Positions 45,996-55,473 of a DNA stretch of 64,000 bases are shown here, piece after piece. Source of the DNA: a phage; the NCBI GenBank assembly GCA_029220445.1, contig GCA_029220445.1_3666.1; one strand, given 5' to 3'. Below the pieces are notes generated by a model. That model saw nothing but the letters and a program-made list of their open reading frames with translations. It made no database searches and had not been told where the DNA came from. Made by a program: the position numbers and the translations under genes. Numbering within the stretch: the stretch's first letter is position 1; the number at the start of each line of letters is the position of its first letter.

Positions 45996-47261
45996 TTATT
46001 CCAGCACCTCCCAAGTTTCTGGATTAAGATTGCGGAATGCGATACCCACAGGGAATTGAGGCACACCGTCCACCGTACGCTGTTGGAATTTTATCGTGAT
46101 AAATTTGCCAACATATGAGCAGCATTTTTCGTAGTTCCTTACGGCAAAAGTGCCTTTCATTTTGCATTTGCATTGTGTCCCATCTTTCTCTTCGCAGATA
46201 AGAACACCTTCCCCGTTTTTATCTTTTTCAACACCGATCACTTTTGCTTCAACATCGGTGAACAGTTTCCACTTGAGCAGATCAGTAGAGCGTTGACCGT
46301 ATTCGTAGGTGCCACGGAAGTTACGAATAATAGATCCTTCATAACCTTCCTGCATGTACTGTCCGATGGAGTTGCGAACCTCTTCCTCGTTGTAGGCGAT
46401 CTTGAAAGGAACACCCTCGACGTTGGTGAGATGGTTAACTTCACAATAATCAATAACTTCCTGAAGATTTGTGGCCCGATCTTCCCAGCGATGGATGCAA
46501 TCAGGAACATCGAACACCATCAGTTTCAGGTCATAAGAGCAGTAACCTCCATACCGATCAGAATCACGGACAGGTTCTTCATAAACCGGATGATCAACCT
46601 TGTTGAAGTCTTTCCATGTCTCCTCTCCGGCCTTGATCGCTTTCTCACGGCGTTTTATGTCTGCCATGAAATCCTTATCAATTTCTTTCTCAATGTCTTC
46701 CAGACTACGCCATTTCTTAACGAGGGAGGTTATTTTCTGCAACGGTAAACCGTGAATGTAGAACTCCCCATCAAATTCATCAAAGCCTGTTTCTTCATGC
46801 AGGTCTTGTAGCTCACGGAGGATGTTACCTTTCGGCTCATACACTTTGTTACCGCGAGAGATGAATTTAGGTACACCGTCTACGAATTTGACAAAGCAAC
46901 GGTTCCCGTCAAGTTTGTGTTGCAGGTGGCATGGATACACAATAGCGTGTGGTTTTTTCGAAGCATCTTGCGCCAGCATAGGTGAAATGTCAATGGCCTC
47001 AAGGTCTTCGACATTTTCTTTGTAACCCAGCCGGACTTGCTTTTCCCATTTAGACTGCGCCTCTAAAACAGCTTGTTCTTCTGCTGTAGTTTCGTTGGAT
47101 CGCCCGATGTTTTTGGCTTCACATTTTGTGGTTTTTGATTGTACAGCGCCACCAACCCTGCCGAACACAACAATAACCTCGTTGCCGCTTGTATCTACTT
47201 TCCACATCTGGATGGACCCGTCTTTATTGCGAGCATAAAGTGTTGTTTTGAATTGATGCAT
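45996..47261 (-). CDS. ATP-dependent DNA ligase (421 aa)
   Basis: Motif I KLDGNR, motif IV EGSIIRN, motif V LLKWK. Confidence 0.7.
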   Translation of the reverse strand: MHQFKTTLYARNKDGSIQMWKVDTSGNEVIVVFGRVGGAVQSKTTKCEAKNIGRSNETTAEEQAVLEAQSKWEKQVRLGYKENVEDLEAIDISPMLAQDASKKPHAIVYPCHLQHKLDGNRCFVKFVDGVPKFISRGNKVYEPKGNILRELQDLHEETGFDEFDGEFYIHGLPLQKITSLVKKWRSLEDIEKEIDKDFMADIKRREKAIKAGEETWKDFNKVDHPVYEEPVRDSDRYGGYCSYDLKLMVFDVPDCIHRWEDRATNLQEVIDYCEVNHLTNVEGVPFKIAYNEEEVRNSIGQYMQEGYEGSIIRNFRGTYEYGQRSTDLLKWKLFTDVEAKVIGVEKDKNGEGVLICEEKDGTQCKCKMKGTFAVRNYEKCCSYVGKFITIKFQQRTVDGVPQFPVGIAFRNLNPETWEVLE

Positions 47262-47530
47262 TACTCTACCTCTTCCTTAAAAATTTTAAACATCTCTTCT
47301 TTACTCATTACCAACCAGTCACCCATAAAATCAACAAGCCAATCACCCTGGTACAAGACTAGGTTACCAAACGGCTCTACAAGCTCACACATACGACGAA
47401 GATCTCTGGTCCGAACAGGTGACGATGTAAACACACCTGTATCAATCCACCGTTGCAGATCAGATACTGATGAAGAGCTTCCGTCAAACTGGTGTGCTTC
47501 TACAGGTTTAGCAAGATTAAATAACGGCAT
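47261..47530 (-). CDS. hypothetical protein (89 aa)
   Basis: ORF with stop/start overlap to ligase. Confidence 0.45.
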   Translation of the reverse strand: MPLFNLAKPVEAHQFDGSSSSVSDLQRWIDTGVFTSSPVRTRDLRRMCELVEPFGNLVLYQGDWLVDFMGDWLVMSKEEMFKIFKEEVE

Positions 47531-47825
47531 TGCAGTCCTCCTTCTCTAATAGGTCTTTTATCGGGTAAACAAGCAGGTGTGGATCGTAATAATTTATAGT
47601 TTTATTCTGCCACACTATGAACTTAATTACAACTAAATTTACCACATCTTTATCTCCATGTAGTCCAACACACAGATTTGTCCATATTTTGTGGTTGAAT
47701 ACTTTGCTGTCGATGTAGATCTTAGTGTCAAACTTATCCTCTATCCTACCTATAAATTTAACCAATTCTTTCATCTGATCTCCAAACACAGCATCGTTTT
47801 CAAGATCTCTGGAGTGCTTGTACAT
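47517..47825 (-). CDS. hypothetical protein (102 aa)
   Basis: ORF on minus strand. Confidence 0.45.
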   Translation of the reverse strand: MYKHSRDLENDAVFGDQMKELVKFIGRIEDKFDTKIYIDSKVFNHKIWTNLCVGLHGDKDVVNLVVIKFIVWQNKTINYYDPHLLVYPIKDLLEKEDCNAVI

Positions 47826-47888
47826 AACTTTCTACCTCACTTGCATACTTTCCGAAACAAGTAAAGCCGGGTAATCCCGGCTATGTTG

Positions 47889-48602
47889 TTAAATATACTC
47901 TGTTACATCCTTGAAGCTCGAAGGCTTCATAATCTTACCTTTATTGTCAAGGAATATGATAACTTTATTACCGTTGTAGAATTCTTCCTTGGCAACAAAA
48001 CCTTCATATCGACCATCAAAGCGTCGTTCAAGATCTTTAATCTCCAACTCGATTAGTTGTTCAGCAGGCATATCTGCACTGGCACCGTGTGAATACCGTA
48101 GATGGTTGACCCGTGCAAACTTGCTGTCATTCGATTTGAGAACCTTACGCATCATCCCGCACACATCGCCGCGAAGCTGGAACAGCAAAGCTGTTGACAA
48201 CTCTGCTAAGCGGTAAGCAGACGCTCTTTGCTTAGAGGTGTTTTTCGCAGCGATCAGTGTATCATAGAACTCGCCGATCTTGAACTTAATACCTCGCGGA
48301 TTATCAAACAGGTTTGACCACTTTTCGTGATTATCATTAACAAGATAAGCGGCATAACTTGTGACAACGTGAAGATCGCAGGCCTCTTTTAGCAGGTGAT
48401 CTCCACCATCACCTTTCTCCAGCTCTTCCAAAACCTCATTGAACTCTTCCTCAATGAAGCTAAGCTGTAATTCGAATGGTGTGTATGATTTTTTCACTTT
48501 AGCTGCCACACGGTTCCAGTTTTCCACCCAATTGGCAGACCAAAGGTAGTTTTCAGGCTGAGACAGTTTTTCCAGGTTGTCGATCAGTTTAGTATTCAGC
48601 AT
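47889..48602 (-). CDS. MazG-like nucleotide pyrophosphohydrolase (237 aa), tentative
   Basis: EExxE ... ExxD pattern (FIEEEFNEVLEELEKGD...LKEACDL). Confidence 0.4.
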   Translation of the reverse strand: MLNTKLIDNLEKLSQPENYLWSANWVENWNRVAAKVKKSYTPFELQLSFIEEEFNEVLEELEKGDGGDHLLKEACDLHVVTSYAAYLVNDNHEKWSNLFDNPRGIKFKIGEFYDTLIAAKNTSKQRASAYRLAELSTALLFQLRGDVCGMMRKVLKSNDSKFARVNHLRYSHGASADMPAEQLIELEIKDLERRFDGRYEGFVAKEEFYNGNKVIIFLDNKGKIMKPSSFKDVTEYI

Positions 48603-48615
48603 TAAAGGTCTCCTT

Positions 48616-49377
48616 TTAAAGTTCCATAAAGTTTTCTACAGTTTCAATAAATGCTTTATCAGAGAAAGCGTCAACAGCACCGTTAAACCATACAGGGATC
48701 CCGCGATCCTCATATTGATAAAGGTCGCTACGTGAAATGCCACTTCCATCTGCACTCTGCGAATCATACTTGTTTACAATCAGCAGTTTTGTTCCTTTAC
48801 AAGTAGCAGGAAACAATTCCCAGTTAAAATTAATAACTGTGTTAGAACAACCCACTAGGATCACCATATCATTGCTGGTGAGAGATGTCAACAGGTCATA
48901 CATGTCTGTATACTTAGGAGCAACCTCACCGAAGAACACTACATTGGGCTTAACCCAAGTATACTTGCCTGTATCTACCTCCGTGTATCCGATATTTTTA
49001 ATTACATCATTACCTTCAGCATCTTCGTAGGTGATTTCAGGCAAATACCCGTGGACATGTAAAATATCTTCATGTTTTACACCAGCACGCTCCAGCAAAT
49101 CATCTACATTGGTGGTAAGGTTGATCACACGACCAGACCAGCGGGAATACCACTCAGCGATCCGAAGATGTGCAAGGTTAGGATCAACACTGCCCAGAGC
49201 TACACGACGTGCATTGTAAAAGTCATGCACCTTATAGTAGTTCTTGGCAAAGGTGTGGATGTTGCACACCTCATCGATGCTGAAATTCTCCCACATTGCA
49301 GTGCTACCAGATCGGAAGGTGGGAATACCAGATTCTGCGCTCAAACCAGCACCAGAAATAACAATAAGTCGTCGCAT
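48616..49377 (-). CDS. Sir2-family (sirtuin-like) NAD-dependent enzyme lacking the canonical Cys4 zinc ribbon (253 aa)
   Basis: GAGLSAESGIPTFR, FYNARR, TTNVDDLLERAG, HVHG, VVFFGE, ILVGCS in sirtuin order; no CxxC pairs between HG and VVFFGE. Confidence 0.7.
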   Translation of the reverse strand: MRRLIVISGAGLSAESGIPTFRSGSTAMWENFSIDEVCNIHTFAKNYYKVHDFYNARRVALGSVDPNLAHLRIAEWYSRWSGRVINLTTNVDDLLERAGVKHEDILHVHGYLPEITYEDAEGNDVIKNIGYTEVDTGKYTWVKPNVVFFGEVAPKYTDMYDLLTSLTSNDMVILVGCSNTVINFNWELFPATCKGTKLLIVNKYDSQSADGSGISRSDLYQYEDRGIPVWFNGAVDAFSDKAFIETVENFMEL

Positions 49378-49385
49378 AAATGTCC

Positions 49386-49736
49386 TTAGTAGATGTTTTG
49401 TTTGATCTCTATTCCAAACTTCTTGAATGAGTCAGCAGCAAGCATAAATTTACGAGCTGCCGATGGATTAGAAGTATGCACGAAAATAATCACGTTGTCA
49501 ATAAGTGGTGGCTTTCCGAATACAAGTTTCTCCTCTAGCGCAGAGAAGCAGTCGTACCCTTCAAGAACTTCACCTAGATCATTGTCAAAATACCATTCAG
49601 ATACGCGTCTGTAGAGCTTTCTCTTATCATTAAGAAAATCCATAAATTCAGAAGAATTCTTTAGCCACAGAGCGTCTGGGAGTCCATAATCTGACGGATC
49701 TCTAAAATCATCAAGCCACACAATCCACTTCTTCAT
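49386..49736 (-). CDS. hypothetical protein (116 aa)
   Basis: ATG 49736 with GAGGA RBS; IVWLDDFRDP ... FDNDLGE motifs, no family assigned. Confidence 0.5.
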   Translation of the reverse strand: MKKWIVWLDDFRDPSDYGLPDALWLKNSSEFMDFLNDKRKLYRRVSEWYFDNDLGEVLEGYDCFSALEEKLVFGKPPLIDNVIIFVHTSNPSAARKFMLAADSFKKFGIEIKQNIY

Positions 49737-50668
49737 TGCATATAGTCCTCGTTGTGGAAATAGCAGTCCAGTATCTCGCGACGCTCCTGCTCTAATAAGC
49801 AATTCCACACATCTTCTGTATAGTTGCTACGAATAAATTTTACCATACCGTAAAACTCCTCGTCAACACGTTTAAAAATATCGTCATCCCAAATCTTCCA
49901 TGCTTTACCTCTCATTACGGCCTTCCGTGCCAAATAGTATGGAGACTTGATCTTCAGCTGCAGGTCATAAGGGCAGTAAGGCTTACGGATCATATACCCT
50001 TCGCCCCTTGTTTCTGCAGCTAATTCTTTTGCATAGCTGAACGGGATTTCACGCACAGTGTGAGGACGTTTTGCACCAAGGTATTTGGCAATCCCATCTA
50101 AAGCTGCTTCTGGTAGCATTATTCCAGAATCATTATATCTGCAACCTATCAAATATGCGCCATGGTCTTCTTGAACAATATGCGGATCTGAAGGGTGACA
50201 AATTTCAAACATGAATGTCATGTTTTCATTGCCCATAACCTTCTTGATAAGATCTAAATTACCACATTGCTCTTGGATGGTTTCCTTTGCAAGGTTACAA
50301 TATGGAGAATCAAGAGACCCGGTTGTTGAGAACAATAGTTCACCTTTATGAGATGATACCACACCGAGGAATCCGTTCTTTTTCTCTACCGCAGTAACAA
50401 GTTTACTGTCCGGTAGGTTGGTGGAGTTTTCTCCTAAGTTGAATACTTTTGTGAAAGGCCATGCCACAACATTCCCCTCATTGCCAACAACAATACCTCG
50501 GCACTCCAGTAAACGCGGAGACAAATGCCACAGATTGTTGTAGAATACTTTTCTGGCATATTTATAGATCTTTAATCCAAGATCTGGATAATACCGACTG
50601 GTTACAAGACCTTTGTCTACTAGGTCATCTGCATTAAAATACTTCATCATACGTTCCTCATTTGTCAT
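49733..50668 (-). CDS. polynucleotide ligase of the covalent nucleotidyltransferase family, probable RNA ligase (311 aa)
   Basis: Motif I EKKNGF, motif IV EGYMIRK, motif V LQLKIK; divergent from kinase/phosphatase genes. Confidence 0.5.
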   Translation of the reverse strand: MTNEERMMKYFNADDLVDKGLVTSRYYPDLGLKIYKYARKVFYNNLWHLSPRLLECRGIVVGNEGNVVAWPFTKVFNLGENSTNLPDSKLVTAVEKKNGFLGVVSSHKGELLFSTTGSLDSPYCNLAKETIQEQCGNLDLIKKVMGNENMTFMFEICHPSDPHIVQEDHGAYLIGCRYNDSGIMLPEAALDGIAKYLGAKRPHTVREIPFSYAKELAAETRGEGYMIRKPYCPYDLQLKIKSPYYLARKAVMRGKAWKIWDDDIFKRVDEEFYGMVKFIRSNYTEDVWNCLLEQERREILDCYFHNEDYMQ

Positions 50669-50768
50669 TTTGTCAGTCTATCCTGCCACACAAATAACCT
50701 AGTGTCAACACTTGAAATTAACAAAACAGTTAGGTATACTATCATTAAAATTAAAACGGAGGATTGCT

Positions 50769-51179
50769 ATGTCTAAAATGCTATATATCGTGCGTGGTCT
50801 GCCAGGGTCTGGCAAATCAACACTGGCAAATGCGCTATCTTTAGAAGGTCTGTATCCACATTTTGAGAACGACATGTTCTGGTATGACGATGACGGCAAT
50901 TACAACTGGGATGCAAGTAAAGTAACACTCGCAGCAAAATGGTGCAAAGATAACGTAGAAGATATGATGAGTATGGGATACGACCGTATCGTGGTAAGTA
51001 ATACGTTTACAAAAGAAAAACATGTGCAGGAATATGTTGACATGGCAATCAGTCATGGGTATAGTTATACCGTGATCGTGGTTGAAAACCGCCACGGTAA
51101 TAAAAGCATTCATGATGTTCCAGACAAGGTTGTGGATCGTATGGAACGCCAGCTTAAAAACTGCATTAAACTTAAATGA
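50769..51179 (+). CDS. polynucleotide 5'-kinase-like P-loop kinase (137 aa)
   Basis: Walker A GLPGSGKST and VVSNTFT block resemble T4 Pnk kinase domain; ATG 50769 with GGAGG RBS. Confidence 0.6.
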   Translation: MSKMLYIVRGLPGSGKSTLANALSLEGLYPHFENDMFWYDDDGNYNWDASKVTLAAKWCKDNVEDMMSMGYDRIVVSNTFTKEKHVQEYVDMAISHGYSYTVIVVENRHGNKSIHDVPDKVVDRMERQLKNCIKLK

Positions 51180-51186
51180 GGAATGT

Positions 51187-51741
51187 ATGAAATACTTTGT
51201 AACAAGCGACACACACTTTCTCCACCAGCGGGTCATGGAGTTTGATTCATGTCAAAAACACAGATCTCAGTATGATCACAATCTTGACAGTATGAATGCG
51301 GGAATCATCGCCGAGTGGAACTCTGTTGTGTCACCTGCAGACACTGTGTTCCACTTGGGAGATATTGCGTGCACTAATGATAAGAATATCAACAAATTAC
51401 TTCCAGATATTCTAGATATGTTGAACGGACATATTATTCTTGTTCGTGGCAACCATGACACAAGGACGACTGTCAGAATTATGAAAGAGTTCTATCACGA
51501 GGTTGTAGATTATTACGAGCTTCGCCACAACAAGAATTTGATCTGTATGAGCCATTACCAATTTGCAAAGTGGAACAGAAAGCCTCACGGATCAGTCCAA
51601 CTGTTCGGTCATGCTCACGGAACCACACAACAGTTGTTTGGCAGGCAGCTTGATGTCGGTTGGGATGTGTGGGGGAGACTCTTACCATTAGAAGAGGCAT
51701 ACCGTACTGCAATGAGTTTTGATATTGACAGCAGGGAGTAA
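51187..51741 (+). CDS. calcineurin-like metallophosphoesterase (185 aa)
   Basis: SDTHF, GD, GNHD, GHAHG motifs; ATG 51187 with GAGGA RBS. Confidence 0.65.
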   Translation: MKYFVTSDTHFLHQRVMEFDSCQKHRSQYDHNLDSMNAGIIAEWNSVVSPADTVFHLGDIACTNDKNINKLLPDILDMLNGHIILVRGNHDTRTTVRIMKEFYHEVVDYYELRHNKNLICMSHYQFAKWNRKPHGSVQLFGHAHGTTQQLFGRQLDVGWDVWGRLLPLEEAYRTAMSFDIDSRE

Positions 51742-51788: not shown

Positions 51789-52139
51789 ATGAAAGATGGG
51801 GATAAGCTGCTATATCTTAAAGTCCCCCTTGAAATACTGTCTATGTCAAAAGTTTTGAATGACACAACTGGGGAGGTTGTTGTTCTTGACTTGTATGACA
51901 AGATCGTATACTGCTACCTGCACAACTGGTATAAACTTGGAGGAAATTCACGCTTCACACCCAGCACAAGGAAAATTGCAGCAGATGTTGGGATAAAGAA
52001 AACAAAAGCAGCAGCGTGCGTTAAAACTTTAGAATGTGCAGGATTGGTTGAAACATCCACACAGGGGAGAGGTAAAAGATGCACATTTTCCAAAGTTTTG
52101 CCACCAGAAAAAGTTATTCGAATGTCAACAACTGGTTAG
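51789..52139 (+). CDS. helix-turn-helix DNA-binding protein (116 aa)
   Basis: STRKIAADVGIKKTKAAACVKTLECAGLVE HTH/winged-helix-like segment; upstream of palindromic operator array. Confidence 0.55.
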   Translation: MKDGDKLLYLKVPLEILSMSKVLNDTTGEVVVLDLYDKIVYCYLHNWYKLGGNSRFTPSTRKIAADVGIKKTKAAACVKTLECAGLVETSTQGRGKRCTFSKVLPPEKVIRMSTTG

Positions 52140-54660: not shown

Positions 54661-54735
54661 GCCCTGTTAGCTTAGTGGATAAAGCAGCGGCCTTCTAAGC
54701 CGTTGACACTGGTTCGAGTCCAGTACGGGGTGCCA
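54661..54735 (+). tRNA. tRNA-Arg (anticodon UCU)
   Basis: Manual cloverleaf: acceptor gccctgt/acggggt, anticodon loop cttctaa, T-loop ttcgagt, CCA encoded. Confidence 0.8.
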
Positions 54736-54739
54736 AATT

Positions 54740-54826
54740 GGGGAGTTATCCCGTAGAGGTAGCGGTGTAGACTGTAAATCTATTGTCATTGCGACTCGGG
54801 TGGTTCGACTCCACCACTCCCCACCA
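54740..54826 (+). tRNA. tRNA-Tyr (anticodon GUA), type II with long variable arm
   Basis: Acceptor ggggagt/actcccc, anticodon loop ctgtaaa, T-arm ggtgg-ttcgact-ccacc, CCA encoded. Confidence 0.7.
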
Positions 54827-54940
54827 AATTTATATTTTTAGATGCATAAATAATACAGATAATGGCATTGATATTTATCGTCGTTTATACTAGTCACTAA
54901 CTGCTCGAAAATCAGTGTCATTATCAGTATAATTTATAAA

Positions 54941-55031
54941 GGAGGGTAGGGAGCAATGGTGCTCAAGCGGTCTTGAAAACCGTCCCGTTGAGGATGACTC
55001 GATGATGGTTCGATTCCATTACTCTCCGCCA
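54941..55031 (+). tRNA. tRNA-Ser (anticodon UGA), type II with long variable arm
   Basis: Acceptor ggagggt/actctcc, anticodon loop cttgaaa, T-loop ttcgatt, CCA encoded; position 8 is A (unusual). Confidence 0.65.
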
Positions 55032-55129
55032 CATTGTTGACCTTGTAATTAAGCGAAAGCCGGAAGCAGAACCGGATTATCAAATGTTACAGTCGTCATC
55101 GCCGACTAGCAACATGGTCAACATACTGA

Positions 55130-55226
55130 GCTAGGTAAGCCCTTTGGCAAGGGCGAGGATTTTTAATCCTGAAAATAGACGAGGTAGTCGTTGAATACAT
55201 AGGTGGTTCGATTCCATCACCTAGCA
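55130..55226 (+). tRNA. atypical tRNA-like element (97 nt): normal acceptor, D and T arms, 4-bp anticodon stem with loop tttttaa (UUU, Lys-like) and ~30-nt extra arm; may be a pseudogene
   Basis: Acceptor gctaggt/acctagc perfect; D arm gccc-tttggcaa-gggc; T arm ggtgg-ttcgatt-ccatc; no CCA. Confidence 0.35.
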
Positions 55227-55233
55227 CCTTTTT

Positions 55234-55309
55234 GCTGATGTAGCACAATCGGTAGTGCAATTGATTTGTAATCAATAGGTTGTAGGTTCAAGTCCTGCCA
55301 TCAGCACCA
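55234..55309 (+). tRNA. tRNA-Thr (anticodon UGU)
   Basis: Acceptor gctgatg/catcagc, D stem gcac/gtgc, anticodon arm attga-tttgtaa-tcaat, CCA encoded. Confidence 0.8.
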
Positions 55310-55310
55310 A

Positions 55311-55385
55311 GGCCCTGTAGCTGGAAGGTTCAAGCAAGCGACTCATAATCGCCAGACGGTGGTTCAATTCCACCCAGGGCCACCA
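55311..55385 (+). tRNA. tRNA-Met (anticodon CAU; elongator, or Ile2 if lysidine-modified)
   Basis: Acceptor ggccctg/cagggcc with G1-C72, anticodon loop ctcataa, T arm ggtgg-ttcaatt-ccacc, CCA encoded. Confidence 0.7.
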
Positions 55386-55396
55386 AATAGTAAATA

Positions 55397-55473
55397 CTCC
55401 GCGTAGCTCAGCTTGGTAGAGCGCCTGATTTGGGATCAGGAGGTCGAGTGTTCGAATCACTCCGTGGAGACCA
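55397..55473 (+). tRNA. tRNA-Pro (anticodon UGG)
   Basis: Acceptor ctccgcg/cgtggag (C1-G72 as in tRNA-Pro), anticodon arm cctga-tttggga-tcagg, T-loop ttcgaat, CCA encoded. Confidence 0.8.

Follow-up and report, generated by a model that had tools for sequence, protein, structure and literature searches.

Genes and features of the locus

The window analysed here, a stretch of 64,000 nucleotides of phage DNA (GCA_029220445.1, contig GCA_029220445.1_3666.1), is 99.6-99.7% identical to Escherichia phage rV5. Three of its open reading frames, read in a first-pass annotation as a ligase, a kinase and a calcineurin-like phosphoesterase, correspond to rv5_gp078, rv5_gp077 and rv5_gp076, respectively. 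The gene of gp078, a predicted Rnl1-like ATP-dependent RNA ligase of 311 amino acids (aa) with the motifs VEKKNGF, GEGYMIRK and LQLKIKSPYY, is located at 49733-50668 on the minus strand. A spacer of 100 nt separates it from a divergently transcribed pair on the plus strand, an arrangement already noticed at first reading. The pair is composed of gp077, a putative stand-alone polynucleotide-kinase-like P-loop kinase (50769-51179, 136 aa, RGLPGSGKST), and gp076, a small metallophosphoesterase (51187-51741, 184 aa) with five metallophosphoesterase (MPP) motifs. The program-made frames of these two begin with TTG codons at 50712 and 51082; a GGAGG sequence (50759-50763) sits 5 nt before the ATG at 50769, and a GAGGA sequence over the kinase stop codon lies 5 nt before the ATG at 51187, which leaves 7 nt between the kinase stop and the phosphoesterase start. 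All three proteins exceed the Pfam gathering cut-offs (PF09511, 55.2 against 28.3; PF13671, 41.3 against 27; PF00149, 30.1 against 21.5) and are encoded by genuine genes, not by chance open reading frames.

The first-pass annotation took these three genes for an RNA end-repair set, but the module is larger. On the minus strand the ligase gene opens a compact unit of four genes, the other three of which had been missed. The cyclic-phosphate-processing Receiver-like (cREC) protein gp079 (49386-49736, 116 aa; PF20274, E 1.6e-13; phrog_1479, E 6e-33) starts in an ATGA overlap with the ligase stop codon. It is followed after 8 nt by the gene of the Sir2-family (sirtuin) protein gp080 (48616-49377, 253 aa; PF02146, E 6.9e-28) and finally by that of the MazG-like nucleotide pyrophosphohydrolase gp081 (47889-48602, 237 aa; phrog_671, E 5e-22), which is annotated in NC_011041. 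A search of the PDB with cREC returned no solved relative, and its role is a prediction of two earlier studies (PMC7824862; PMC9503650). For the sirtuin a function as a KptA/Tpt1-like remover of 2'-phosphates was proposed, and MazG was listed within the rV5 neighbourhood (PMC9503650). These accessory genes of the operon in rV5 and its relatives may handle 2'-phosphate or ADP-ribose by-products.

Directly past the MazG stop codon a terminator-like GC-rich hairpin with a T-rich tail (47865-47882, minus strand) might end the ligase-cREC-Sir2-MazG transcript. A sigma-70-like promoter match (TTGAAA-17-TATACT, 50712-50740, plus strand) lies in the divergent spacer upstream of the Shine-Dalgarno sequence of the kinase. 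Both are consensus matches and suggestive only, because the counts of such sites in the region are not clearly above those in shuffled sequence (17 promoter-like sites against 11.6 +/- 3.4, and 3 terminator-like sites against 2.9). A PADLOC scan of the six proteins gave weak P-loop matches for the kinase only, and nothing in it points to a captured defence system.

Two further features belong to the surroundings. An ATP-dependent DNA ligase gene (45996-47261) is found on the same strand as the RNA ligase gene and 2.5 kb away from it. Seven tRNA genes (54661-55473, plus strand; ARAGORN and Rfam) for Arg-UCU, Tyr-GUA, Ser-UGA, an atypical Lys-UUU-like tRNA, Thr-UGU, Met-CAU and Pro-UGG start 2.9 kb past the end of the phosphoesterase gene, close to the distance of about 3 kb given before.

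The ligase

Searches of the PDB with single sequences gave matches at chance level for both the ligase and the kinase, and family profiles were therefore needed. The ligase matches PF09511 over the whole model (positions 1-227 of 227) and phrog_562 with an E value of 9e-66. With the family profile T4 Rnl1 (2C5U) is recovered at E 2.3e-13, whereas the next match, a DNA ligase, stands at E 0.008; the choice between an RNA and a DNA ligase clade, for which the first-pass annotation had named profile searches as the check, thus falls on the RNA side, and the genuine DNA ligase of the phage is a separate gene. In hhalign the alignment to T4-type Rnl1 reaches a probability of 98.2% (E 4e-14) and places residues 31-268 on T4 residues 31-288. 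Judged by its profile, the ligase groups with T4 RNA ligase 1 and not with the ATP-dependent DNA ligases.

The active site is intact. The motif I lysine K96 (KKNG) corresponds to T4 K99, E155 of motif III to E159, E223-G224 of motif IV to E227-G228, and K239/K241 of motif V to K240/K242; all four motifs are invariant in 48 family members. R57, K74 and F76 of the N-terminal sub-domain are likewise invariant; their aligned T4 counterparts are R54, K75 and F77, for which roles have been described (PMC6379707). Against TIGR02308, the equivalog model of T4 RnlA, gp078 scores 37.5 bits, far below the cut-off of 242.25, so that by sequence the protein appears to stand outside Rnl1 sensu stricto and inside the wider Rnl1-like set. 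It is 63 aa shorter than T4 Rnl1, and its last 43 residues remain unaligned in hhalign. Rnl clades are defined by their C-domains, and the all-helical C-terminal domain of the T4 type (T4 residues about 255-374) confers tRNA specificity (PMC6379707). Most of this domain is absent from gp078, which counts against a role in tRNA repair.

The kinase

The kinase matches PF13671 with an E value of 2.4e-10. Its P-loop (G10-x4-G15-K16-S17) and D35 are invariant in 50 sequences; K16/S17 and D35 align with K15/S16 and D35 of T4 Pnk, which makes D35 the candidate general base. V117-P118 correspond to V131-P132 in the acceptor pocket of the T4 enzyme, the residue roles being those given in PMC2831316. 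A Foldseek search of the PDB with the AlphaFold model (pLDDT 92.8) found the kinase of Clostridium thermocellum Pnkp (CthPnk) at TMq 0.74-0.77, T4 Pnk at 0.71-0.75 and PSTK at about 0.71, compared with 0.35-0.58 for UMP-CMP, adenylate and shikimate kinases (about 0.5 for the NMP kinases). The family profile matches Pnkp1, T4 Pnk and CthPnk across 100-125 residues, and alignments that extend beyond the P-loop were obtained only for polynucleotide or tRNA kinases. Since hhalign against T4 Pnkp (probability 95.6%, E 1e-8) agrees with both searches, the first description of gp077 as Pnk-like holds: by predicted fold and by profile it appears to belong with the polynucleotide kinases CthPnk and T4 Pnk and not with the NMP kinases.

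Two observations on the kinase count against a role in RNA repair. The counterpart of T4 Arg38 is missing, the position being W38 in gp077 and phenylalanine in the family consensus; mammalian PNKP, which needs longer substrates, also lacks it (PMC2831316). Furthermore, a kinase homologue of 50% identity adjoins a PRPP-synthetase-like gene and has no ligase within 6 kb. From its sequence relationships the kinase would act on RNA with a 5'-OH end.

The phosphoesterase

All five motifs of the calcineurin-like superfamily are complete in gp076 (D8xH10, G58D59, G88N89H90, H123 and G141H142xH144), 72 sequences show no variation at D8, H10, G58, D59, G88, N89, H90, H123, G141, H142 and H144, and the PF00149 score exceeds the cut-off, so the superfamily named at first reading is right. 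The comparison with bacterial Pnkp made there does not extend to the phosphatase. The closest structure is 1XM7, a hypothetical protein of Aquifex aeolicus (aq_1665), and gp076 belongs to this uncharacterised aq_1665 clade and not to the Pnkp/lambda-phosphatase clade. CthPnkp and lambda phosphatase, members of the same superfamily, are described in PMC2190708 as 2',3'-cyclic phosphodiesterases. From its gene context gp076 is proposed as a healing enzyme for 2',3'-cyclic-phosphate or 3'-phosphate ends. The distant relationship to the Pnkp phosphatase counts against such a role, as does the wider phosphoesterase family (31-42% identity), where among the matches listed a kinase is present at 13 of 80 loci and a ligase at five of 80.

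Gene neighbourhood in phages and bacteria

Neighbours were counted within 10 kb of the ligase gene at 80 viral loci, whose ligases fall into 41 clusters at 70% identity. At 74 of the loci (37 of 41 clusters) the kinase is present, the median gap being 0 nt; for the phosphoesterase the figures are 62 loci, 35 of 41 clusters and 125 nt. The order of the three genes differs between lineages. Sir2 and MazG each accompany the ligase in four of the 41 lineages and cREC in five; at distant loci, at least four in number, cREC recurs beside kinase, phosphoesterase and ligase genes in varying positions.

Sets anchored on the kinase (79 loci) and on the phosphoesterase (80 loci) are samples of their families among the matches listed, not rankings. 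Among the kinase loci so listed, 55 of 79 carry the phosphoesterase, 28 the rV5-type ligase and 24 instead an RNA ligase of the PF09414 type. A separate kinase next to an MPP-type phosphatase, regarded as unusual in the first-pass annotation, is thus a common arrangement among these matches. An RNA ligase of either of the two families lies within 8 kb at 47 of the 79 listed kinase loci, and many of the others end at contig ends. The kinase-phosphoesterase pair is often found near the different RNA ligase family where the rV5-type ligase is absent.

The enzymes are also found fused. Kinase-ligase fusions (about 430-500 aa) are encoded by phages and by Cardiobacteriaceae, in the latter with a phosphoesterase of the gp076 clade next in line, and kinase-Metallophos-ligase fusions of 708-772 aa exist in Leptolyngbyaceae; phrog_8238 shows the same fused layout. 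Clustering, shuffled gene order and fusions in distant phages and bacteria support joint action on RNA ends. Together with the family placements they bear out the core of the first reading, an end-repair trio that is encoded in rV5 by separate genes. Neither of the placements that had been named there as refuting it, a ligase among the DNA ligases and a kinase among the NMP kinases, was observed.

tRNA genes lie within 10 kb at 46 of the 80 ligase loci and, among the matches listed, at 10 of the 79 loci anchored on the kinase and 23 of the 80 anchored on the phosphoesterase. This enrichment near the ligase is only suggestive because the locus sets differ in window size and lineage; that shared ancestry of the loci is uncorrected in these counts also weighs against it. 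The tRNA cluster of rV5 is therefore treated as context which may be relevant to the cassette, not as a demonstrated part of the module.

Comparison with known RNA repair systems

In phage T4, Pnkp (pseT) and RNA ligase 1 (rnlA) reverse the cleavage of tRNA-Lys by PrrC. The rV5 locus resembles this pathway in its Rnl1-like ligase with the same catalytic residues, in its Pnk-like P-loop kinase with the same predicted general base, in ligase and healing genes that are separate but close (1.4 kb in T4) and in the presence of tRNA genes. The two differ in the phosphatase, which in T4 is a HAD (DxDxT) enzyme in one protein with the kinase; rV5 has a stand-alone kinase, and its candidate phosphatase is of the metallophosphoesterase type. 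Moreover, the rV5 ligase has 311 aa compared with 374 in T4, with most of the C-terminal specificity domain gone, and the kinase is without the Arg38 counterpart.

With the Pnkp-Hen1 system of C. thermocellum the cassette has three chemistries and three protein superfamilies in common, and the kinase domain of this bacterial Pnkp is the closest structural relative of the kinase model. Membership in bacterial Pnkp, where kinase, lambda-phosphatase-like metallophosphoesterase and Rnl4 ligase form one polypeptide accompanied by Hen1, was rejected. The Trl1/Tpt1 system of fungi and plants likewise combines a kinase, a cyclic-phosphate opener, an Rnl1-like adenylyltransferase ligase and NAD-dependent clean-up, the last of which has been proposed for Sir2 in rV5. 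However, Trl1 has a 2H cyclic phosphodiesterase and a C-domain of its own (Rnl6 clade, PMC6379707), the rV5 sirtuin is unrelated to Tpt1, and a requirement for a 2'-phosphate is a proposal only in rV5.

The same locus of the same phage was described by Iyer et al. (2022) (Viruses 14:1977, PMC9503650; Iyer, Burroughs, Anand, de Souza and Aravind), who independently predicted an NAD-using RNA-repair system. Their 'type 2' sirtuin-linked neighbourhood, with Escherichia phage V5 and Proteus phage Mydo as prototypes, comprises sirtuin, T4-like tRNA ligase, cREC, kinase, MazG and calcineurin-like phosphoesterase, and in the window the full set of six occupies 47889-51741. GenBank and BASEL annotations already name the cassette genes. 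The cassette of rV5 is real, and its reading as an RNA-repair system is plausible and already known as a prediction. Both studies are computational. The earlier one is built around the sirtuin; it describes the phosphoesterase as 'occasional' and names the kinase a 'nucleotide kinase' (PMC9503650). When neighbours are counted around the ligase, by contrast, it is the kinase and the phosphoesterase that are constant, and Sir2, cREC and MazG that turn up only occasionally. This shift of the constant partners away from the sirtuin is an incremental novelty, as are the association of the kinase-phosphoesterase pair with a second RNA ligase family, the fused versions in Cardiobacteriaceae and Leptolyngbyaceae, and a phosphoesterase that is not of the Pnkp type.

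Genetic data

Our literature search found no experiments on the rV5-type ligase, kinase or phosphoesterase. In Bas54 (MaxBurger), a phage of 93% identity, all cassette genes tolerate transposon insertions when E. coli K-12 is the host, which would be expected of genes that serve counter-defence only under certain conditions. The ligase gene has a mean insertion count of about 192, compared with 0 in essential structural genes; in T4 the N-terminal domain of rnlA does not tolerate insertions. Extended Data Table 8 lists no depletion of Bas54 mutants in cassette genes; the table covers the uropathogenic isolates CFE303 and CFE311, the comparison may refer to either, and its result counts against a counter-defence role.

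Proposed function and alternative readings

The genes most likely form a phage cassette for healing and sealing RNA, which would mend host or phage tRNAs cut by metal-independent ribonucleases. The gp077 kinase would phosphorylate the 5'-OH end at the expense of an NTP, with its P-loop (K16/S17) and with D35 as general base. The gp076 metallophosphoesterase would open and then remove the cyclic phosphate to give a 3'-OH, a step at which cREC could assist or substitute. Finally, the gp078 ligase would pass AMP from K96 to the 5'-phosphate and join both ends. From this context we infer a role against anticodon nucleases.

A variant of this explanation rather than its opposite is the NAD-using pathway of the yeast and plant style proposed by Iyer et al. 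(2022) (PMC9503650). In this pathway cREC or the phosphoesterase would leave a 3'-OH/2'-phosphate end, the ligase would seal, Sir2 would strip the 2'-phosphate from the junction by ADP-ribosyl transfer like Tpt1/KptA, and MazG would clear the by-products. The dense packing of the cREC, Sir2 and MazG genes behind the ligase gene fits such a series, as do the recurrence of cREC near the other three genes and the adenylyltransferase domain which the ligase shares with the 2'-phosphate-dependent fungal Trl1 (PMC6379707). However, Sir2, MazG and cREC occur in very few of the ligase lineages, most of which have the phosphoesterase, the ligase profile matches T4 Rnl1 and no Trl1 structure, and 2'-phosphate chemistry is unneeded if gp076 is a dual cyclic-phosphodiesterase/monoesterase of the CthPnkp type. 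Furthermore, neither a sirtuin with RNA 2'-phosphotransferase activity nor a characterised cREC is available, as the authors of the proposal state (PMC9503650). We regard it as rather unlikely that this pathway is the correct one. An equally low probability is given to its full form, likewise predicted in print, in which the rV5-type cassette would be a phage version of eukaryote-like 2'-phosphate tRNA ligation with cREC as opener, a short Rnl1-like sealer and a sirtuin in place of Tpt1/KptA, and the aq_1665-type phosphoesterases an unrecognised family of RNA 3'-end healing enzymes.

Kinase and phosphoesterase could also act on small molecules, in nucleotide salvage or in the destruction of cyclic-nucleotide or ADP-ribose-derived immune signals, and be only loosely linked to the ligase. 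This is improbable: several lineages have kinase and RNA ligase fused in one protein, and the kinase is structurally closer to polynucleotide than to NMP kinases, keeps the Val-Pro pair of the acceptor-nucleoside pocket and lies near an RNA ligase at most of its listed loci. The points in its favour are the name 'nucleotide kinase' used by Iyer et al. (PMC9503650), the lack of the arginine with which T4 Pnk binds the acceptor 3'-phosphate, and the homologue beside PRPP-synthetase-like and HAD_PNKP genes. On the side of the phosphoesterase, the structural neighbours include the small-molecule phosphodiesterases LpxH, MJ0936, YfcE and GpdQ, and the broad family is, among the matches listed, mostly found away from kinase or ligase.

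Still less credit is given to the processing of DNA ends in replication or repair together with the nearby ATP-dependent DNA ligase. T4 Pnkp acts on DNA too, the phosphoesterase is weakly similar to the ligase-associated nuclease PdeM/MPE, and a DNA ligase gene lies within 10 kb at 43 of the 80 ligase loci. Nevertheless, at these loci the DNA ligase gene is never less than 100 nt from the RNA ligase or phosphoesterase gene (median gaps 1.7-2.0 kb), the cassette has its own RNA-family ligase, for which another RNA ligase family substitutes when it is absent, and the kinase fusions are with RNA and not with DNA ligase. The GenBank product name of gp078, 'RNA ligase 1 and tail attachment protein', was transferred from T4; like the label of phrog_562, it suggests that the ligase mainly catalyses tail-fibre attachment in the manner of T4 gp63. 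Such a role is scarcely credible given the low RnlA equivalog score of the ligase and the lack of tail genes nearby, and as a main role it was ruled out on the transposon data, insertions being tolerated in Bas54 and not in the N-terminal domain of T4 rnlA.

Significance for phage biology

Host defences that cut tRNAs, among them PrrC, RloC, PARIS, some retrons and the collateral cleavage by Cas13, are a growing theme in phage-host biology. To our knowledge, T4 Pnkp with Rnl1 is the only demonstrated RNA-repair pathway of a phage. The rV5-type cassette is widespread and unites a stand-alone kinase, a metallophosphoesterase of an uncharacterised clade, an Rnl1-like ligase of reduced length, cREC and a sirtuin. 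It bears on the question of how general RNA repair is as a counter-defence of phages, and it could give functions to three orphan enzyme families.

Identity and annotation of the locus

Between positions 49300 and 52200 the window is 99.6% identical, in opposite orientation, to Escherichia phage rV5 (DQ832317/NC_011041), and about 120 further Vequintavirus records share 93-98% identity with the same region. Three genes lie here: gp078 (49733-50668, minus strand, 311 aa) for an Rnl1-like ligase, gp077 (50769-51179, plus strand, 136 aa) for a kinase and gp076 (51187-51741, plus strand, 184 aa) for a metallophosphoesterase. A check of the ORFs and tRNA genes of the window reproduced the ORFs, strands, peptide motifs and distance to the tRNA cluster (54661-55473, plus strand) of the first-pass annotation, and each of the three products exceeds its Pfam gathering threshold. 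ATG 50769 and ATG 51187 are sensible starts for kinase and phosphoesterase, each preceded by a Shine-Dalgarno-like sequence. To judge from the sequences, the cassette is likely to function in heal-and-seal repair of RNA, probably tRNA. The repair interpretation offered at first is supported as far as sequence analysis goes, although it was incomplete in extent and is not new, the cassette being already known from annotation and a published prediction. In rV5 the products are named 'RNA ligase 1 and tail attachment protein' (gp078), 'ATPase' (gp077) and 'phosphoesterase' (gp076); the kinase is called 'polynucleotide kinase' in the BASEL phages. Eighteen GenBank records titled 'Campylobacter phage' (MG0656xx, host Campylobacter jejuni) carry this E. 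coli Vequintavirus locus unannotated at 94-97% identity; their host labels appear doubtful.

The three core proteins

The Pfam family PF09511 (RNA_lig_T4_1) aligns to the ligase end to end. A profile of 48 homologues matched T4 Rnl1 (2C5U) with an E-value of 2.3e-13 and the top DNA ligase with 0.008, and profile-profile comparison with T4-type Rnl1 proteins gave a probability of 98.2% (E 4e-14). A distinct DNA ligase, with PF01068 and the OB domain PF14743, is encoded at 45996-47261 (minus strand). Because of this Rnl1 placement and the separate DNA ligase gene, gp078 is assigned to the RNA and not to the DNA ligase clade, as had been proposed. Invariant in the family are K96, E155, E223/G224 and K239/K241, equivalent to T4 K99, E159, E227/G228 and K240/K242, as well as R57, K74 and F76 of the N-terminal sub-domain, the counterparts of T4 R54, K75 and F77 (for the roles of the T4 residues see PMC6379707). 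RNA ligase clades are defined by their appended domains (PMC6379707). Most of the C-terminal tRNA-specificity domain of T4 has no counterpart in gp078, the Rnl1 alignment ending at residue 268 of 311, and the score against the T4 RnlA equivalog model (37.5) is below the cut-off of 242; the protein is therefore termed Rnl1-like and not a strict Rnl1.

The kinase family comprises at least about 8000 matches, mainly stand-alone proteins of about 130 aa. The structure model (pLDDT 92.8) comes nearest in fold, at TMq 0.71-0.77, to the kinase domain of Clostridium thermocellum Pnkp, to T4 Pnk and to PSTK, a tRNA kinase; NMP, shikimate and gluconate kinases reach 0.35-0.6. Beyond the P-loop the profile aligns only with Pnkp1, T4 Pnk, PSTK and CthPnk. 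In the alignment with T4 Pnkp (probability 95.6%, E 1e-8) the P-loop and the general base D35 agree, and V117-P118 corresponds to the Val-Pro pair lining the T4 acceptor-nucleoside pocket; W38 stands in place of T4 R38 and an invariant N78 in place of T4 D85 (residue roles in PMC2831316). Since fold, profile and residue matches all favour polynucleotide kinases, the Pnk-like assignment stands and an NMP kinase is disfavoured. The absent Arg38 counterpart allows for a differing acceptor preference. The homologue P0104 (contexts L003-L008), a stand-alone kinase of 50% identity, is encoded in phage DNA along with a PRPP-synthetase-like protein and a stand-alone HAD_PNKP phosphatase. No RNA ligase was found within 6 kb of this homologue, so a ligase does not accompany every member of the kinase family.

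All five metallophosphoesterase motifs are invariant among 72 homologues of gp076. The proposed likeness to the phosphatase of bacterial Pnkp holds only at the superfamily level; the clade, that of Aquifex aq_1665 (PDB 1XM7), is a different one and biochemically blank. The substrate of this enzyme is the least secure step of the repair reading.

Conserved linkage across loci

The ligase-anchored sample consisted of 80 viral loci, with ligases 35-49% identical (one locus 88%) that form 41 clusters at 70% identity. Within a distance of 10 kb the ligase has a kinase in 74 loci (37 clusters; median gap 0 nt) and a phosphoesterase in 62 (35 clusters; median gap 125 nt), both nearly always on the ligase strand. 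Gene orders vary, phosphoesterase-ligase-kinase and kinase-ligase-phosphoesterase being two of them. The kinase-phosphoesterase pair is inverted in the rV5 type only, so that the divergent layout described at first is a local rearrangement. A DNA ligase occurs in the wider region of 43 of the 80 loci and is never adjacent.

Fusions are also found. Kinase and ligase form a single 432-aa protein in one phage group, and in Cardiobacteriaceae (L091, 5371-7510) such a fusion is followed by a phosphoesterase of the aq_1665-type clade. Leptolyngbyaceae cyanobacteria encode kinase-Metallophos-ligase single chains of 708-772 aa (L099, 4786-6909; L101, 4546-6861; Leptolyngbya genomes), which resemble Pnkp in layout but have a PF09511 ligase; phrog_8238 is likewise fused.

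Among the matches listed for the kinase, 55 of 79 loci contain a phosphoesterase, often overlapping the kinase stop codon; 28 contain a gp078-type ligase, 24 a PF09414-type RNA ligase and 47 either of them, many loci without an RNA ligase being truncated by contig ends. Among the 80 phosphoesterase-anchored loci listed (31-42% identity), a kinase is present in only 13 and a ligase in only 5, so that the broad family as a whole is not reserved for RNA repair. An alternative cassette around a different ligase family is found on the phage contig L131 (7956-13345), where overlapping kinase and phosphoesterase genes are followed by those for a 412-aa protein without Pfam match, a DPBB-domain protein, a cREC protein and an RNA ligase of the PF09414 type that carries an OB fold at its N terminus. 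Taken together, the variation in gene order, the fusions and the replacement of the RNA ligase family make a strong contextual case for joint function. Kinase and phosphoesterase appear to make up a unit that heals RNA ends, with the ligase as its partner for the sealing.

The leftward operon

The ligase gene is the first of a packed leftward operon overlooked in the first-pass annotation, which had the three genes of the module right and its extent incomplete. The next gene, for cREC (gp079, 49386-49736, minus strand; PF20274, E 1.6e-13), starts in overlap with the ligase stop codon and is followed after 8 nt by Sir2 (gp080, 48616-49377, minus strand) and after a further 13 nt by a MazG-like gene (gp081, 47889-48602, minus strand) with a terminator-like hairpin at its 3' side. 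Two small genes (47261-47530 and 47517-47825) continue the leftward row between the MazG-like and DNA ligase genes and recur in related Vequintavirinae-like loci. For the sirtuin, KptA-like removal of 2'-phosphate has been proposed (Iyer et al. 2022; PMC9503650), and a rationale for cREC is given in PMC7824862. Counted by lineage, however, Sir2, cREC and MazG are each found with the ligase in only 4-5 of 41; these counts invert the emphasis of Iyer et al., the three being occasional partners. Genes for cREC do turn up again in unrelated loci, next to the core genes and at varying positions.

tRNA genes near the cassette

Of the 80 ligase loci, 46 have tRNA genes no more than 10 kb from the ligase, compared with 10 of 79 kinase-anchored and 23 of 80 phosphoesterase-anchored loci among the matches listed; this proximity is suggestive, in a comparison that ignores shared ancestry and uses sets of different window size. 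An atypical tRNA gene at 55130-55226 (plus strand), unannotated in NC_011041, matches the Rfam tRNA model with 35.5 bits (gathering 29). It has the anticodon loop UUUUUAA with the anticodon UUU (Lys) and a variable region of about 30 nt that folds into an additional hairpin (MFE -34.2 kcal/mol, z -3.7). ARAGORN calls it 'tRNA-???' with a four-base anticodon, and in BASEL phages the equivalent gene is annotated as a 97-nt tRNA-Lys. PrrC has tRNA-Lys(UUU) as its classic target, which makes this odd phage copy near a repair cassette noteworthy. A match to the Rfam family 'Plastid-ycf2 5'UTR' at 55311-55383 (minus strand; 41.3 bits, gathering 65.7), antisense to a tRNA-Met gene, is almost certainly artefactual and due to tRNA-like structure.

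Dispensability and biological role

A literature search for published biochemistry on these cassette proteins found none. The related phage Bas54, identified by coordinate match as MaxBurger (MZ501093) and 93.1% identical to the window from cREC to phosphoesterase, was studied in a transposon-sequencing preprint. On E. coli K-12 the genes took insertions with mean counts of about 192 (ligase), 171 (kinase), 140 (phosphoesterase), 88 (cREC) and 406 (sirtuin), essential genes scoring 0; one comparison in Extended Data Table 8, a table covering the uropathogenic isolates CFE303 and CFE311, lists no depletion for cassette genes. In T4 transposon data the N-terminal domain of rnlA is intolerant of insertions. 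The cassette genes of Bas54 are dispensable under the conditions tested, which fits a putative conditional role in counter-defence; an essential role in tail-fibre assembly is opposed by the tolerated insertions.

Immediately 3' of the phosphoesterase lies an HTH/DUF6945 gene (51789-52139, plus strand) named 'replication initiation protein' or 'transcriptional regulator'. Its Bas54 orthologue has about 14 mean insertions versus 140-400 for its neighbours, which suggests that disrupting it costs fitness.

The significance of the cassette is modest at present, and would grow on proof of a 2'-phosphate pathway using sirtuin and cREC, or of RNA-healing phosphoesterases as a new family.
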